A stretch of 64,000 bases of DNA from Arcobacteraceae bacterium (GCA_963662945.1 OY759974.1:1312001-1376000), one strand, 5' to 3'; counted from the first letter of the stretch, positions 6,018 through 12,849 are shown. A program made the numbers and translations. The notes: a model not told the origin generated them from the sequence alone.

Positions 6018-7973
6018 TTACTTAACAGCTTTCTTCAAATCTTTAAATAATTCAATAACCGCGATTGACCACAGTTTTGCTACATCATTAATTACTTTTT
6101 TGGAATGTAAATCTTTTTGTTTTAAATTTAAAATAAAATTTACATAAATATCTGCCAATGCAGTAAAATGTAAAAAGATATCAGAAAATACATGATGAGA
6201 ATCATTTTTTAATATTTCTAATATCCAAATCATAATATCTAATTTATGTTGTAAAAAGTCATCTTTTGATTTATATTCTTTAGTGTTAAATCTTTTTGCT
6301 CTATTTAATATTGTATTAATTACTTGAATATCTTTTTGAAATTCTAAATTATCTACAACTACAGAAATATTATTTATTGCTTCAATGCTAGAAAACTTTA
6401 TATCATCAAATTTTTGAGCCTTTTTATTAAATTCTTCATAATTTAATGGTTCTAATCCTTCTATGTATGCTCCGTCTGAAAGATTATATGCTTTATAGTT
6501 CAAATGAGTTAAATCTCTCATCGCCATTTTATAATGATCGATAAAAATTATTAACTCTCTATTTGTTTTAACTGTTTCTCTAAAATTTCCCTTTACTGTA
6601 AGAACATCTGAATTTGAAACTCTATTTTTATCTTCGGATTCTTTTAAAGTATGCTTAATTATATTCTTACAATCTGTAGCATAATTTTGTCCTGTTTCCT
6701 GATGAAATGCGGCATCATTTCCTATAAGATATAATTCTTCTGCACCTAAATGTACAGATACTAAAAATGCATAAGTACCTACATTAGGAACAGACCCTAA
6801 ATAACCAAGACTCTCAACTAAGGGTAAAACTTGTGCAAAATAATAATGCTTGTCTCCAATTATATCAAATACTCCAGAATCTTGTTGTGTTAAAAATATA
6901 ATAGCAGTGTTATTTAAAAAATTAGGATCTTGTGTAGTTAAATGTAAAGCAATTCTTGGCGAAGGATCAATTGAGAATATTATATCTGGTATAATTTTAT
7001 GCTTTTCTAATTTTGAAACCATTGTATCTACAGAAACAATAATAAATTTATTCTGATTTTCAACTATCCACTCTATATAACTATCAAGAGAGGGACCAGC
7101 ACTAATCATCAATAATTTTTTCCCTGTTAATACTTTTTTTTCATATGCTAATGGTACACTAATAAATTTTTCTTTCTTTTTGATAAAATCAACAATTTTA
7201 TGTAAATTATCTACTACCATTTTATAAGGAAATGTTATTACAGAGTTTTCAGCAAAAAAATCAACTAATTCATCCTTGATATATGCATTTGAAGTAACTA
7301 AGTTGTAATATTTTACATTATAGTTCATATATTGGTGATGAGAAGAAAAATCATCATATACAATTTGTCTTTTGTTTTTATCTTGCCCTACGCTTAAAAA
7401 TAAAGTTCTATTCCCTTTTGCAAACTCTGAATAGTCTGTTGTAAATAAAGATAATCTAAAAATTTCTAACTCTGGTTCTATTATTAATGTAGTGTACGAT
7501 TGAATTTTGGAATCAATTTCTTGAATATGAAAACCTAATCCTGTTCCAATAAAAACAAATTTATATATTTTCTGATACTCCACATTTTCTAAATCAACAT
7601 TTTCATTGATATAATTAACTATAGGCATTACATCTTTATAAATCTCACCTGATACTAATTTATTTGTATAAGGATTCTTTCTTAATAAATCTAAAGAGTT
7701 ATTATTGGTAAAATCTACATATTTTTTTCTTTCTTCAGCATCTTTATAACTATCTGTAAAATAATACATTCCATTATTTTCATGATTTAATATATCAAAA
7801 TAACCATCTACATATTCTAAAGTATATTGCTCTTTCTTATTTCCTACTGCAATTTCATGAGACAAGTTCTTTACATCTTCATATATATCATAAAAGTTAT
7901 CCTTTAAAAAAGATAAGTTTTTATGATATATACTAACTGCCAACTTATTCAACTCTTCTACATTTACATTCAT
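6018..7973 (-). CDS. maf: Motility-associated factor (Maf) flagellin glycosyltransferase, MAF_flag10/DUF115 type
   Basis: FIGTGLGFHI, IIEPELEIF, ISAGPSL, IIPDIIFSIDP, YLIGNDAAF; directly downstream of the flagellins. Confidence 0.85.
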   Translation of the reverse strand: MNVNVEELNKLAVSIYHKNLSFLKDNFYDIYEDVKNLSHEIAVGNKKEQYTLEYVDGYFDILNHENNGMYYFTDSYKDAEERKKYVDFTNNNSLDLLRKNPYTNKLVSGEIYKDVMPIVNYINENVDLENVEYQKIYKFVFIGTGLGFHIQEIDSKIQSYTTLIIEPELEIFRLSLFTTDYSEFAKGNRTLFLSVGQDKNKRQIVYDDFSSHHQYMNYNVKYYNLVTSNAYIKDELVDFFAENSVITFPYKMVVDNLHKIVDFIKKKEKFISVPLAYEKKVLTGKKLLMISAGPSLDSYIEWIVENQNKFIIVSVDTMVSKLEKHKIIPDIIFSIDPSPRIALHLTTQDPNFLNNTAIIFLTQQDSGVFDIIGDKHYYFAQVLPLVESLGYLGSVPNVGTYAFLVSVHLGAEELYLIGNDAAFHQETGQNYATDCKNIIKHTLKESEDKNRVSNSDVLTVKGNFRETVKTNRELIIFIDHYKMAMRDLTHLNYKAYNLSDGAYIEGLEPLNYEEFNKKAQKFDDIKFSSIEAINNISVVVDNLEFQKDIQVINTILNRAKRFNTKEYKSKDDFLQHKLDIMIWILEILKNDSHHVFSDIFLHFTALADIYVNFILNLKQKDLHSKKVINDVAKLWSIAVIELFKDLKKAVK

Positions 7974-8002
7974 AATATACTATCCTTTTCTAATATTCTA
8001 GC

Positions 8003-8037
8003 AAAAAAAAACCCAAGTTAAAGTTAACTTGGGTTTT
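8003..8037 (-). terminator. Intrinsic terminator after flagellin 1
   Basis: ACCCAAGTTA-AAGT-TAACTTGGGT stem; the A-run on + gives a U-tract on -. Confidence 0.8.
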
Positions 8038-8063
8038 CCATAATTTAATTATCTTAAAGAAAA

Positions 8064-8945
8064 CTATTGAAGTAATCTTAAAACATTTTGACTTGTAGCA
8101 TTAGCTTGACTTATTGCATAAGTACCTGCTTGTGCTATAATGTTTTGTTTATTAAAGTTTGCAGATTCTTGTGCATAATCAACATCTCTAATAACTGACT
8201 CAGCAGCAAGAGTATTTGTAACTTGAGTCATCATATTTCTAATACTTGACTGTAATTGATTTTGAGTAGAACCAATATCTGCTCTCCATCCATTTAATTG
8301 TGTTAATGCACTATCTAGAGCTGCAATATATGTTCTTGCAATCGCTTGAGCTGATGCTGCTGTTGTAGTCGCAGCTGCAAGAAATGCACTTCCTGCTTTA
8401 ATCATTAGTGCTGACATTTTGTTTAATCCAGTTGTATTAGCTTGAATACCAGAACCTAGTGTAATTAAATCAGCTGATGTTGAACCCATTTGGAATGTTA
8501 ATTTTACTGATGCACTTGCACCTGCAGCACTTCTTTGTAATAATGTTGTACCATTATATGTTGTTTGTTGTGCAATATTATTAACTTGTTCCAATAGTTT
8601 TTTAATATCTTTACCAATTGCTTCAATACCATCTAATGATGTTGTAGCTGTCGATGCCTGAATTAATTTTTGTTTTACGATATCTAAAATATTAGATGTT
8701 TCTGCCATCGCTTTATCAGCAATTTGTGTTAATGAAACAGCTGAATTACCATTTGCAACAGCTTGATTCAATGAACTAGCTTGTGTTCTTAGTTTATCAG
8801 CAATTGCTAAACCAGATGCATCATCTGATGCTTTATTAATTCTATAACCTGTAGATAATTTTTCTAGTGAACTAGATATATTATTATTTGTATTTGCATT
8901 CGCTTCTTGAGCTATTAGTGAGCTCACATTTGTATTTATTCTCAT
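8064..8945 (-). CDS. Flagellin 1 (short, 293 aa)
   Basis: MRINTNVSS, LEKLSTGYRINKASDDASGL, IRDVDYAQES, NVLRLLQ. Confidence 0.97.
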   Translation of the reverse strand: MRINTNVSSLIAQEANANTNNNISSSLEKLSTGYRINKASDDASGLAIADKLRTQASSLNQAVANGNSAVSLTQIADKAMAETSNILDIVKQKLIQASTATTSLDGIEAIGKDIKKLLEQVNNIAQQTTYNGTTLLQRSAAGASASVKLTFQMGSTSADLITLGSGIQANTTGLNKMSALMIKAGSAFLAAATTTAASAQAIARTYIAALDSALTQLNGWRADIGSTQNQLQSSIRNMMTQVTNTLAAESVIRDVDYAQESANFNKQNIIAQAGTYAISQANATSQNVLRLLQ

Positions 8946-9065
8946 AATTTATCCTTTTAAATTTATGACACATTGTAATCAAATTGATTACGACGAAAAA
9001 CATTCTCATTCTATCTCTATCCTGAGCATAGGGACTTTCACCCTTCGGTATCAATTGATACCTAT
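8706..9065. repeat. 360-bp direct repeat, copy A (flagellin 5' part plus 120-nt upstream element)
   Basis: Base-by-base identical to 9785-10144 on visual comparison. Confidence 0.9.
8946..9065 (-). promoter_or_regulatory. Structured flagellin upstream element or leader, copy 1
   Basis: Hairpins GGG-TGAAAGT-CCC, CTATGCTC-AGGATA-GAGATAG, GTAATCA-ATT-TGATTAC, AATTTA-AAAGGA-TAAATT and palindrome GGTATCAATTGATACC. Confidence 0.7.
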
Positions 9066-9117
9066 AAATTAAATCTCAAAAATAAAATCAATAACCTCAT
9101 TTTTAAAATCTAATCAT

Positions 9118-9143
9118 AAAGCTACACAATTCAGTGTAGCTTT
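9118..9143 (-). terminator. Hairpin after flagellin 2 (weak U-tract)
   Basis: AAAGCTACAC-AATTCA-GTGTAGCTTT. Confidence 0.55.
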
Positions 9144-9154
9144 ACTTTAGAAAA

Positions 9155-10024
9155 CTATTGAAGTAATCTTAAAACATTTTGACTTGTAGCATTAGCTTGA
9201 CTTATTGCATAAGTACCTGCTTGTGCTATAATGTTTTGTTTATTAAAGTTTGCAGATTCTTGTGCATAATCAACATCTCTAATAACTGACTCAGCAGCAA
9301 GAGTATTTGTAACTTGAGTCATCATATTTCTAATGCTTGACTCTAATTGATTTTGAGTAGAACCAACGTCTGCTCTCCATCCATTTAATTGTGTTAATGC
9401 ACTATCAATTTTAGCAATGAATGTTCTTGCGTATGTTTGCCCAGAAGTTGCTCCCATATTTGCAAAACCACTTAAACCAGCTAATTTTAATGCTGACATA
9501 CCATTCAATCCTGTTGTATTTGCATGTACACCAGATGCTAATGAAATTAAGTCAGCTGATGTTGCACCCATTTGGAATGTTAACTTCGCAGCAACTACAC
9601 CAGCACTAGCACCTTCAAGTAATTGAATACCATTGTATGTAGTTTGAGATGCTATATTATCAATTTGATCTAACAATTTATTAATATCTTTACCAATTGC
9701 TTCAATACCATCTGCAGATGTAGTAGCAGTTGCAGCTTGAATTAATTTTTGTTTTACGATATCTAAAATATTAGATGTTTCTGACATCGCTTTATCAGCA
9801 ATTTGTGTTAATGAAACAGCTGAATTACCATTTGCAACAGCTTGATTCAATGAACTAGCTTGTGTTCTTAGTTTATCAGCAATTGCTAAACCAGATGCAT
9901 CATCTGATGCTTTATTAATTCTATAACCTGTAGATAATTTTTCTAGTGAACTAGATATATTATTATTTGTATTTGCATTCGCTTCTTGAGCTATTAGTGA
10001 GCTCACATTTGTATTTATTCTCAT
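9155..10024 (-). CDS. Flagellin 2 (289 aa)
   Basis: Same conserved termini as flagellin 1, different central domain. Confidence 0.97.
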   Translation of the reverse strand: MRINTNVSSLIAQEANANTNNNISSSLEKLSTGYRINKASDDASGLAIADKLRTQASSLNQAVANGNSAVSLTQIADKAMSETSNILDIVKQKLIQAATATTSADGIEAIGKDINKLLDQIDNIASQTTYNGIQLLEGASAGVVAAKLTFQMGATSADLISLASGVHANTTGLNGMSALKLAGLSGFANMGATSGQTYARTFIAKIDSALTQLNGWRADVGSTQNQLESSIRNMMTQVTNTLAAESVIRDVDYAQESANFNKQNIIAQAGTYAISQANATSQNVLRLLQ

Positions 10025-10144
10025 AATTTATCCTTTTAAATTTATGACACATTGTAATCAAATTGATTACGACGAAAAACATTCTCATTCTATCTCTATC
10101 CTGAGCATAGGGACTTTCACCCTTCGGTATCAATTGATACCTAT
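9785..10144. repeat. 360-bp direct repeat, copy B
   Basis: Identical to 8706-9065. Confidence 0.9.
10025..10144 (-). promoter_or_regulatory. Structured flagellin upstream element or leader, copy 2
   Basis: Identical to 8946-9065; preceded on - by TATAAT (10143-10148) and TTTAAG (10171-10176). Confidence 0.7.
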
Positions 10145-10182
10145 TATAATAAAATTATTCCGTAACAATTCTTAAAATTAGT

Positions 10183-10383
10183 TTAATTTAAAGTTTCTTC
10201 TAATTTTTTTATTGTTTCTATAGTTTTAATATTACTATTAACACGTTTTTGCATTGCATGTTTCTTAATATGTTTCGCAAGAATTTTTTTATACTTCATA
10301 TAATTTCTTGAATCTATTTCATATCCACACAATTTCTTTTGAATTTTTAAAATATCACTAGGTATAGAACTCATATTTTCCAT
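10183..10383 (-). CDS. Small basic hypothetical protein (about 66 aa) inside the flagellin array
   Basis: ORF with GGAGG SD before ATG at 10383; Lys-rich SIPSDILKIQKKL...KKILAKHIK. Confidence 0.7.
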   Translation of the reverse strand: MENMSSIPSDILKIQKKLCGYEIDSRNYMKYKKILAKHIKKHAMQKRVNSNIKTIETIKKLEETLN

Positions 10384-10449
10384 TTTACCCTCCAAGATAT
10401 TAAAATTATTACATAACATTTCTTAAATTTAGATTAATTTTAAGAAAGT

Positions 10450-10488
10450 TATAAAAAAACCTAAGCTATTACACTTAGGTTTTTTATA
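10450..10488 (-). terminator. Intrinsic (bidirectional-type) terminator after flagellin 3
   Basis: AAAAAAACCTAAG-CTATTACA-CTTAGGTTTTTT. Confidence 0.75.
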
Positions 10489-10500
10489 TACTAATAAAAT

Positions 10501-11382
10501 CTACTGTAATAATCTTAAAACATTTTGTTGTACATTATTAGCTTGACTTATTGCATAAGTACCTGCTTGAGATATTATATTTTGTTTATTAAAATTTGCA
10601 GATTCTTGTGCATAATCAACATCTCTAATAACTGACTCAGCAGCTTTTGTATTAGTTACTTGAGTCATCATATTTCTAATACTTGACTCTAATTGATTTT
10701 GAGTAGAACCAATATCTGCTCTCCATCCATTTAATTGTGTTAATGCACTATCTATTGATGAAATATATGCTCTTGCAATCGCTTGAGCTGATGCTGCTGT
10801 TGTAGTCGCAGCTGCAAGAAATGCACTTCCTGCTTTAATCATTAGTGCTGACATTTTGTTTAATCCAGTTGTATTAGCTTGTACTCCTGAACCTAATGTA
10901 ATTAAATCAGCTGAAGTAGTACCCATTTGGAATGTTAATTTTACTGATGCACTTGCACCAGCTGCACTTCTTTGTAGCAAAGAAATCCCATTATACGTAG
11001 TTTGTGAAGCTATATTATTAACTTGTTCCAATAGTTTTTTAATATCTTTACCAATTGCTTCAATACCATCTAATGATGTTGTAGCTGTCGATGCCTGAAT
11101 TAATTTTTGTTTTACGATATCTAAAATATTAGATGTTTCTGCCATCGCTTTATCAGCAATTTGAAGCAATGAAACAGCTGAATTACCATTTGCAACAGCT
11201 TGATTTAATCCACTTGCTTGTGTTCTTAGTTTATCAGCAATTGATAAACCAGATGCATCATCTGATGCTTTATTTATTTTAAGACCAGTAGATAACTTTT
11301 CTAAAGAATTAGAAAGAGTAACATTTGTTTGTGCATTTGCTTCAAGTGCAGTAAGTGAAGAAACATTTGTATTGATTCTCAT
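10501..11382 (-). CDS. Flagellin 3 (293 aa)
   Basis: Flagellin N- and C-terminal motifs; termini differ from flagellins 1 and 2. Confidence 0.97.
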   Translation of the reverse strand: MRINTNVSSLTALEANAQTNVTLSNSLEKLSTGLKINKASDDASGLSIADKLRTQASGLNQAVANGNSAVSLLQIADKAMAETSNILDIVKQKLIQASTATTSLDGIEAIGKDIKKLLEQVNNIASQTTYNGISLLQRSAAGASASVKLTFQMGTTSADLITLGSGVQANTTGLNKMSALMIKAGSAFLAAATTTAASAQAIARAYISSIDSALTQLNGWRADIGSTQNQLESSIRNMMTQVTNTKAAESVIRDVDYAQESANFNKQNIISQAGTYAISQANNVQQNVLRLLQ

Positions 11383-11510
11383 AATTTATCCTTATTTCCA
11401 ATAGGTTGTATATGTTTTATTGACACATTATATTTGAACAAATCTTAATTTAAGCTTAAATGTATAGCTTTTAATGACCTTTATTCCCTTTATTTATGGG
11501 ATTTGTATTC

Positions 11511-11554
11511 CAATTCTTAATTTGAGATTAACAATAATCTTAAATTAAGAATTG
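11511..11554. repeat. 20-bp inverted repeat (1 mismatch) between hom and flagellin 3
   Basis: CAATTCTTAATTTGAGATTA-ACAA-TAATCTTAAATTAAGAATTG. Confidence 0.8.
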
Positions 11555-11580
11555 TAAATCACTATAATTCTACCTTATAA

Positions 11581-12849
11581 TTAATCTTCGATTCGAATCA
11601 TGATAGGTGTAGTTTTTACAACTCCTGAATCTTCCAATTTTTTTAATGCAATTTTAATATCTGATTCTTTACACACATGTGTTGATAAAAGTAAACTAGC
11701 ACTTTGATCATTTTGTTCTTTTTGTATCATTGTTTTTATAGAAATATCTTGTTCTCCAAGTATTGTTGCTACTTTTGCCAATACTCCACTTTTATCTTCT
11801 ACATTTAACCTTATGTAATACTTTGTATAAATATCATCACTTGATGCTAGTGTTAAACTACCTGTTTCCATAGGTTTTGTAAATCCTAACATTGGCGAAC
11901 CTTTTCCTCGCCGTGCGATATCTACAAGATTTGCTATTACTGCACTAGCTGTTGCATCTCCTCCAGCTCCTGGTCCTATATAAAGAGTTTCGCCTACTTT
12001 ATCACCTAAAACACTAATTCCATTCATCACACCATCAACTTTTGCTATCATATCTTGATTACTAATTAATGCTGGGTGAACTCTTAATTCAACTTTACCA
12101 TCTTTGTTTTTCTGAGCTATTGCTAAAAGTTTAATTGAATAATTTTGTTCTCTTGCAAAATAGATATCATCTGCAGAAATATTTTCAATCCCTTCTATAA
12201 GAATATCTTCCGGTTTAGCATCTATCCCATAAGCAATACTTGCTAAAATTAGAAGTTTATGTGCTGCATCAAAACCACCAACATCAAATGTTGGATCTGC
12301 TTCGGCATATCCTAACTCTTGTGCTTCTTTCAAAACATCTTCGTAAGCAATACCCTCATTAATCATCTTAGTTAACATATAATTACAAGTACCATTTAAA
12401 ATACCCCAAATAGAAACGATATGATTTGCACTTAAACCATCCCTTAAAGCATTAATTATAGGAATTCCTCCAGCAACTGCCGCCTCAAATTCAAATGGAG
12501 TATTTCCTGCACACTCCTGTAGCTCATATCTATGATAAGCCAAAAGTGCTTTATTTGCTGTTACTACTGCTTTTCCTTTTTCAAGAGCTTTTTTTACTAC
12601 TGCATAAGGTTTTTCAACACCACCCATAAGTTCTACTACAATATCAATTGAATCATCATCTAAGATATCATCTGGGTTATCGGTAATTTTTATAGATACA
12701 TCTCTTTTTTTAGAAAGATTATTTACAACACCCGCAACAGGAACAATTTCAACTCCTGCACGTGCTGTAATAATATCTTTATTATCTTCTAAAATTTGGC
12801 ATACGCTTGTACCTACAGTTCCAACTCCAATGATACCTACTTTTAACAT
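11581..12849 (-). CDS. hom: Homoserine dehydrogenase with C-terminal ACT domain
   Basis: GIIGVGTVG, VVELMGG, VVTANKA, EAAVAGGIP, GYAEADPTFDV. Confidence 0.95.
   Translation of the reverse strand: MLKVGIIGVGTVGTSVCQILEDNKDIITARAGVEIVPVAGVVNNLSKKRDVSIKITDNPDDILDDDSIDIVVELMGGVEKPYAVVKKALEKGKAVVTANKALLAYHRYELQECAGNTPFEFEAAVAGGIPIINALRDGLSANHIVSIWGILNGTCNYMLTKMINEGIAYEDVLKEAQELGYAEADPTFDVGGFDAAHKLLILASIAYGIDAKPEDILIEGIENISADDIYFAREQNYSIKLLAIAQKNKDGKVELRVHPALISNQDMIAKVDGVMNGISVLGDKVGETLYIGPGAGGDATASAVIANLVDIARRGKGSPMLGFTKPMETGSLTLASSDDIYTKYYIRLNVEDKSGVLAKVATILGEQDISIKTMIQKEQNDQSASLLLSTHVCKESDIKIALKKLEDSGVVKTTPIMIRIED

Follow-up and report, generated by a model that had tools for sequence, protein, structure and literature searches.

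A conserved element upstream of flagellin genes in Arcobacteraceae is predicted to form a four-hairpin leader RNA

How is flagellin expression controlled in the Arcobacter family, in which regulation of the flagellum is an acknowledged open question? A 2022 comparative study (PMC9321776) describes FlgRS, FlgM and CsrA as lost, reports that no DNA-binding regulator was found close to the flagellar loci and asks for experiments. The question is raised again by the window analysed in this work, i.e. the whole stretch of 64,000 nucleotides from an Arcobacteraceae bacterium (GCA_963662945.1 OY759974.1:1312001-1376000), in which a 120-nt element stands twice immediately before flagellin genes. Genome comparison provided three handles on this question: a putative structured flagellin leader absent from Rfam, a candidate 42-nt late-flagellar promoter motif, and a small protein that travels with them. 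A published description of the leader RNA was not found in a search of the literature on Arcobacter flagellin, UTRs, riboswitches or small RNAs, in which the papers retrieved were judged by title or abstract.

The flagellin locus and the two copies of the element

Three flagellin genes, each coding for Flagellin_N and Flagellin_C domains, are arranged in tandem on the minus strand (10501-11382, 9155-10024 and 8064-8945), with a gene for a Maf-type flagellin glycosyltransferase (6018-7973) downstream of them and a small open reading frame (10183-10419, minus strand) between the first and the second. A preliminary description had placed the element at 8946-9065 on the minus strand, with an identical twin at 10025-10144 on the same strand, and both were located there. 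Counted with the start codon, copy a (8943-9065, minus strand) includes the ATG at 8945-8943 of the third flagellin gene, and copy b (10022-10144, minus strand) includes that of the second; each matched the covariance model R1 described below with 124.7 bits (E 1e-21 for copy a), and they are the only full copies in this genome. Its G+C content of 31.7%, compared to 16-22% in five neighbouring spacers and 28.3% in the window, bore out the description of the element as richer in G+C than the spacers around it.

The longest identical run at an offset of 1079 measured 360 nt (8706-9065 = 9785-10144, minus strand) and comprised the leader together with 240 nt from the start of the flagellin coding sequence, its upstream end falling exactly on the first base of the leader. 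This tract is a single duplication or gene-conversion unit and, therefore, the two copies do not count as independent evidence. Concerted evolution is seen in the tandem flagellin genes: the leader and the 5′ coding part are identical or 1-2 nt apart within a genome and differ between species, as was also observed in relatives (L009, L024 and L033).

The first flagellin gene has no leader, its upstream region being different and shorter. At 11383-11470 (minus strand), upstream of this gene, a degenerate copy of the promoter motif described below was observed (weight-matrix score 1.2), which contains a TATAAT and is followed by GTGTCAA, a sequence resembling the heptamer of the leader. Therefore, the locus comprises two classes of flagellin genes, with and without leader, and the same two-class arrangement was seen in several relatives. 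The interval that separates the first flagellin gene from the homoserine dehydrogenase gene also contains a 23-nt inverted repeat (11508-11557; 91% complementary, 4 nt between the arms), each arm of which resembles the upstream box of the flagellar promoter motif (weight-matrix score 5.8).

The region 7900-11600 was scanned against Rfam 15 by cmscan with permissive filters and a threshold of E ≤ 10. Nine matches were obtained and none of them overlapped the element, as the preliminary description had expected. The best were terminator look-alikes at 8003-8117 and chance miRNA matches inside coding sequence. A strong intrinsic terminator follows the third flagellin gene (8003-8037, minus strand) and gave weak chance matches to Spot 42, NsiR1 and VrrA, far below their gathering scores.

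Fold and distribution of the predicted leader

On comparative grounds, the element is an uncatalogued, conserved, four-hairpin structured 5′ leader RNA of Arcobacteraceae flagellin mRNAs. The leader would begin with a 5′ tail UA, continue with hairpins P1 to P4 in series, joined by conserved single-stranded junctions, and end with the heptamer GURUCAU and an open, A-rich ribosome-binding site. All its parts are given here for the minus strand. P1 (copy a 9047-9062, copy b 10126-10141) has 6 bp closed by a RAUK loop and forms a perfect 16-nt palindrome; four of its six pairs were changed on both sides, and many G.U pairs were found. P2 (9030-9044 and 10109-10123) has 4 bp and a loop variable in sequence and length; in the family alignment, all four pairs were changed on both sides and every cell (100%) was paired. 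P3 (9005-9026 and 10084-10105) has a base CUYR/YRAG, which alternates between CUCA/UGAG, CUUG/CAAG and CUUA/UAAG among relatives, and a top of variable length that in many species is a perfect stem of its own. P4 (8975-8991 and 10054-10070) has 5-7 bp and a variable loop, and its pairs were changed on both sides in three of five cases in the genus alignment made with MAFFT and in five of five in the model-fitted alignment. The lengths of P2, P3 and P4 vary between species, and the nearly invariant positions are the junctions, the RAUK loop (about 25 nt together with the junctions) and the heptamer.

In the genus alignment, which was made with MAFFT and not fitted to the model, RNAalifold predicted the four hairpins. 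Here 98.3% of 418 cells were paired, compared to 34-44% when the partners were slid, and 8 of the 19 pairs were changed on both sides, values that none of 500 shuffles reached. The family alignment (88 matches, 82 of them distinct), which is fitted to the model and hence leans towards it, had 15 of 19 pairs changed on both sides (279 cells). Alignment de novo of 48 of the 82 distinct sequences with MAFFT, followed by RNAalifold, recovered P1 to P3 with 10 of 14 pairs compensated; P4 was not recovered from this family-wide alignment because its length is too variable for MAFFT. For the single sequence the minimum free energy was −23.6 kcal/mol, no better than chance (z = −1.29), since an equally good fold was reached by 18 of 200 shuffles; the evidence for a fold beyond chance thus comes from the comparative data, i.e. 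conservation and covariation, and not from single-sequence folding.

The helix cells comprised 1446 Watson-Crick pairs, 68 G.U or U.G pairs and one A.C or C.A mismatch. As a G.U pair of the sense strand is an A.C mismatch on the opposite strand or in duplex DNA, this asymmetry is explained by sense RNA only. Therefore, selection acts on RNA of the flagellin-sense strand, and an antisense RNA was ruled out by the same counts.

The general idea of a novel cis-acting RNA before flagellin genes, as put forward in the preliminary description, was supported by conservation, covariation and the lack of an Rfam match, and the check for covariation proposed there, across Arcobacteraceae flagellin upstream regions, revealed covarying stems in P1 to P4. 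The details fared differently. Its hairpins GGUAUC/GAUACC, GGG/CCC and GUAAUCA/UGAUUAC agree with the covariation, whereas P3 (CUYR...YRAG) had been missed. The T-loop resembling that of FMN riboswitches, which was proposed for the second hairpin, did not hold: among the 82 distinct homologues the loop of P2 differs freely in sequence, and its length changes by as much as about 20 nt, so that only the P2 stem is under selection. Mutually exclusive folds had also been suggested. The long-range pairing that they require, which would compete with P4, was formed in 64.3% of cells, compared to a shuffle mean of 62.8%, with a covariation of 0.068 versus 0.066 in shuffled data, and was no better than slid controls either. 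Mutual information with APC over the 82 sequences gave no extra long-range or pseudoknot pairs, its top values being helix pairs and adjacent or nearby columns. A self-contained RNA switch is not supported by these alignments.

The whole 120 nt were detected by BLAST in 15 of the 27 other genomes of the genus, at 70-85% identity. Two covariance models, R1 built from 22 genus sequences and R2 from the family alignment, were then applied to 150 other family genomes, a sample of the larger group. R1 gave full-length matches in 103 of them, belonging to 17 of 22 genera and frequently in tandem about 1.0-1.1 kb apart, and R2 added 5 of the 36 remaining genomes with flagellin. The leader was thus detected in 108 of 150 genomes, which are 108 of the 139 with a flagellin gene and none of the 11 without one. 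All of the 88 matches taken as sequence end in an ATG that opens a flagellin, 86 of these being N-termini confirmed by BLAST; in the other two, contig ends cut the coding sequence after MRINTN and MR. Up to 10 leader copies were present per genome (G070). With both models, the leader was not found in 31 flagellin-bearing family genomes, including all nine of genera g2, g4 and g12. As the first flagellin gene of the present locus is also devoid of it, expression of flagellin as such does not require the leader.

A search of 140 genomes from 25 other families of the order yielded no credible copy. The one weak match there (G201, 34 bits) was rejected as a member because it has neither P2 nor P3 and depends on the region of the ribosome site. 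Among the genomes searched, the matches confine the leader to Arcobacteraceae. An exact degenerate core pattern was found in 81 stretches among the genomes of 185,579 species, with titles naming Arcobacter, Aliarcobacter, Halarcobacter, Malaciobacter, Poseidonibacter, Candidatus Marinarcus and metagenome bins of Arcobacteraceae or Campylobacterota, and a few bins with other labels. Exact core matches were also seen in bins labelled Colwellia, Candidatus Paceibacteria, Helicobacter and Sulfurospirillum (L154, L159, L160 and L187), with five of them lying within 5.4 kb in L154; the contigs concerned probably belong to Arcobacteraceae and were mis-binned or mislabelled.

Promoters, ribosome site and candidate factors

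A 42-nt promoter motif, represented by 55 distinct sites in relatives, consists of an upstream box with TTAAGAAWTG, followed by TGn and a −10 hexamer. The −10 ends at a fixed distance, 10-15 nt, before the UAGG of the leader, and conservation is low between motif and leader. A copy of this flagellar-type promoter precedes leader copy b (10149-10190, minus strand), with TTAAGAATTG in the upstream box (10175-10166) and AATAAT as the −10 (10159-10154); its weight-matrix score of 43.0 is the second best in the genome. The best score, 47.7, belongs to a second copy, a direct repeat of the first, which precedes the small open reading frame (10400-10441, minus strand). The four best genome-wide matches to the weight matrix lie before the small open reading frame, leader copy b, flgK and flgO, the identities of the last two being confirmed by Pfam and their sites lying outside the window, near G000:C1 1474346 (minus strand) and 1070766 (plus strand). 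Therefore, the motif was assigned to a flagellar-class promoter, and it may mark the family's late-flagellar transcription system. The preliminary description had noted a TATAAT just 5′ of copy b (10148-10143), from which a transcript would begin at the pairing strand, but this hexamer is not conserved. The conserved −10 would place the whole of P1 inside the transcript, with a predicted start near 10147-10150.

Upstream of copy a no copy of the motif was found, and this leader follows a terminator-like hairpin (9116-9145, minus strand) located past the end of the second flagellin gene. The leader of some genera comes directly after the small open reading frame, also without a promoter. P1 is thus not always at the primary 5′ end. 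In an RNA-seq library of a relative, one 167-nt contig extended from the coding sequence through the heptamer into 75 nt of leader-like sequence further up, a weak hint only, as contigs show no start and the library may contain DNA; otherwise, this library covered scattered parts of the locus only.

The preliminary description referred to a family in which A. butzleri lacks FliA and RpoN. For FliA the lack was confirmed in the family, since FliA did not exceed the cut-off in any of 151 family genomes. For RpoN it does not extend to the present genome, which encodes a sigma-54 homologue outside the window (Sigma54_DBD, G000:C1:716113-716571, in an open frame of 418 aa). A. butzleri is described as devoid of RpoN (PMC2147049), so that a lack of RpoN is not valid for every member of the family. 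As for the element itself, a sigma-54 promoter was considered by eye and rejected, as the GG-N10-GC spacing is absent and the variable length of P2 is incompatible with it.

No match to CsrA (PF02599), FliW (PF02623), FlbT (PF07378) or FlgM was found in the host genome, which is 99.99% complete. CsrA, like FliA, exceeded the cut-off in 0 of 151 family genomes; therefore, there is no complementary distribution of these proteins to compare with that of the leader. These absences agree with PMC9321776 and PMC2147049.

The heptamer GURUCAU lies 3′ of P4 (copy a 8965-8971, copy b 10044-10050, minus strand) and is nearly invariant. In one group of genera a CCC...GGG hairpin replaces P4 and carries the heptamer in its loop. 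Conservation of the heptamer in two structural settings argues for its being read in RNA rather than as a −10 box, as expected of a recognition motif. About 10 nt downstream comes an invariant Shine-Dalgarno sequence, AAAGGA (copy a 8952-8957, copy b 10031-10036, minus strand), which is predicted to be unpaired, as is the AUG, in every consensus structure.

P4 is not followed by a U-tract, and neither leader copy contains a terminator-like site, that is, the GC-rich hairpin plus U-tract before the gene that would mark an attenuator. A conserved complement of AAAGGA was not seen by eye in the leaders of relatives. The leader shares with riboswitches in general a conserved, aptamer-like fold with covariation, and an expression platform, either terminator/anti-terminator or a helix sequestering the Shine-Dalgarno sequence, was not found. 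An upstream open reading frame starting from the ATG in J2/3 was also inspected by eye and discarded: because the length of P3 varies, the frame length differs between species, as does the stop, and no Shine-Dalgarno sequence lies at a fixed distance.

Two proteins were considered as candidate factors. The small basic open reading frame upstream of copy b is 78 aa long as listed and its homologues measure 62-78 aa, so its start is probably at 10383. It has 688 homologues, all without a Pfam family, and a mean column identity of 62% over 28 sequences. It was present in 119 of the 150 family genomes, often directly upstream of the leader, and of the 103 with an R1 match, 100 encode it. Structure prediction gave a two-helix model (pLDDT 82), for which Foldseek returned no PDB match with E ≤ 0.001 (best 1.3), and the ESM Atlas offered only unnamed Campylobacterota clusters, below 0.9; prediction of a complex with flagellin, run without controls, scored 0.00 and speaks neither for nor against binding. 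The small protein is a candidate leader-binding factor, although co-inheritance among kin is weak evidence and the protein occurs without the leader too, being present in 14-19 genomes in which the leader was not found and 13-37 kb from it in several genera. The other candidate, by analogy, is an HP0958-like protein of 240 aa with a Zn_ribbon_9 domain, which is encoded in the host genome and is not linked to the flagellin locus.

Possible roles of the leader and comparison with known systems

The most likely reading, to which we would give an even chance, is that of a factor-bound leader that sets flagellin translation and/or mRNA stability. The hairpin domain and the heptamer would serve as a platform recognised by a trans-acting factor, which is most likely a protein, and the bound factor would determine how much flagellin is translated and/or how long its mRNA lasts. 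Since the Shine-Dalgarno sequence is accessible and P4 lacks the features of a terminator, the factor would exert control by occupying a site near that of the ribosome or by shielding the mRNA from RNases rather than through a self-contained RNA switch. Leader control of this kind may stand in, in this lineage, for the control that CsrA-FliW or FlbT exerts on flagellin mRNA in other bacteria. A more elaborate form of it, which we regard as rather doubtful, is a checkpoint replacing the lost sigma-28/FlgM and CsrA/FliW systems: the late-flagellar promoter would serve the flagellins, flgK, flgO and the small protein, and this protein, another factor or a second messenger would bind leader and heptamer and hold or release the translation of flagellin depending on how far assembly has advanced. 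If true, leader and partner would make up a novel RNA-protein (or RNA-ligand) regulatory pair to which no known flagellar regulator is homologous.

Dense conservation of the junction nucleotides is, however, equally typical of a small-molecule aptamer. A new class of riboswitch, whose four-hairpin domain binds a small molecule such as a motility-linked nucleotide second messenger and thereby changes flagellin expression, would account for some 25 nearly invariant nucleotides in junctions and P1 loop beside freely covarying stems, for the length variation of P2, P3 and P4, common in many aptamers, and for a family-wide distribution with strict cis position and no Rfam match. It is nevertheless unlikely, as no helix closes the junction and mutual information gave no further long-range pair, terminator and anti-Shine-Dalgarno segment are lacking while the ribosome site is unpaired, the alternative fold has no comparative support, and the gene context, with only flagellin genes downstream, suggests no ligand. 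A constitutive element for stability or processing, in which the hairpins, with P1 near the 5′ end, protect the mRNA from 5′-end-dependent RNases or mark a processing site without any regulatory input, is rather doubtful. Expression of flagellin is very high, the ribosome site stays open throughout, and the promoter geometry predicts a start 3-8 nt before UAGG, which would put P1 near the 5′ end; but a simple stabiliser would not need four stems plus invariant junctions and heptamer across about 18 genera, P1 is away from the primary 5′ end in copy a as well as in several genera, and the leader is missing from the first flagellin gene.

Three further explanations carry much less weight. It is very unlikely that the leader also acts in trans, as a small RNA derived from the 5′ UTR or as a sponge in which several leaders titrate a regulator. 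The number of copies, up to 10 per genome and nearly identical within it, suits titration, for which PMC4894983 gives a precedent in Campylobacter jejuni, where flaA mRNA titrates CsrA. Against this, no terminator or defined 3′ end lies between leader and coding sequence, the identity within genomes is explained by conversion tracts that include coding sequence, and there is no known target or partner. Action at the level of DNA, with the palindromes as operators of a dimeric transcription factor, or with the box after P4 as the real promoter and the 120 nt as upstream promoter DNA, is highly improbable: P1 is a perfect 16-bp palindrome and P4 one of 17 bp, with similar half-sites, and the sequence after P4 resembles an extended −10 and also the −10 region of the upstream promoter, yet the excess of G.U (68) over A.C (1) and the free change of stem sequences with pairing kept point to RNA, stems differ in length and spacing by as much as tens of nucleotides, unlike a fixed operator geometry, and the genera with the CCC...GGG hairpin keep the heptamer but no −10-like hexamer. 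A minor proximal promoter, from which a short transcript would arise, is possible. Least probable of all is an RNA thermometer for flagellin translation. The hairpins are rich in A and U, and many family members live at variable temperatures, but neither the Shine-Dalgarno sequence nor the AUG lies in any conserved helix, as it would in ROSE or fourU elements; the UCAUAA box could pair weakly with UUAUGA at the start codon, but the invariance of both sides leaves no covariation.

The leader can be compared with several known systems. The GGG-UGAAAGU-CCC hairpin of the host copy resembles the T-loop hairpin of the FMN aptamer (RF00050), but the element did not match that model at E ≤ 10, its loop is not conserved and the six-stem architecture is absent. 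Conserved structured RNAs in cis to flagellar genes include the flg-Rhizobiales motif and the c-di-GMP riboswitches before Clostridia flagellar operons, some of them without known function; the present leader differs from these two in lineage and fold and in having no Rfam match. In Caulobacter, FlbT and FlaF couple flagellin synthesis to assembly, the protein acting on the structured 5′ UTR of the flagellin gene fljK, whereas the host genome has no FlbT homologue and the RNA is unrelated. For HP0958 of Helicobacter pylori, a member of the same phylum, we know of no defined RNA motif, and its Zn_ribbon_9 family also occurs in non-flagellated bacteria among the control genomes. HP0958 is described in PMC3417511, citing Douillard 2008, as a zinc-ribbon protein that modulates the flaA mRNA available for translation.

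The other comparison is with the CsrA-FliW leaders of Bacillus subtilis hag and Campylobacter jejuni flaA (PMC4894983). The Arcobacteraceae leader differs from them in being much longer, in its four predicted covarying hairpins without similarity to known families, and in a host that encodes neither CsrA nor FliW as far as the genome search could detect. CsrA-binding leaders have at least two conserved GGA, in the Shine-Dalgarno sequence and in a hairpin loop, whereas here only the GGA of the Shine-Dalgarno sequence is conserved, an AGGA in the P3 loop of the host genome being absent from most relatives. What both share is a position directly before the ribosome site of flagellin, the tandem arrangement of the flagellin genes and, in a related lineage, the use of the flagellin 5′ leader as a site of post-transcriptional control, the role that the present leader may also have.
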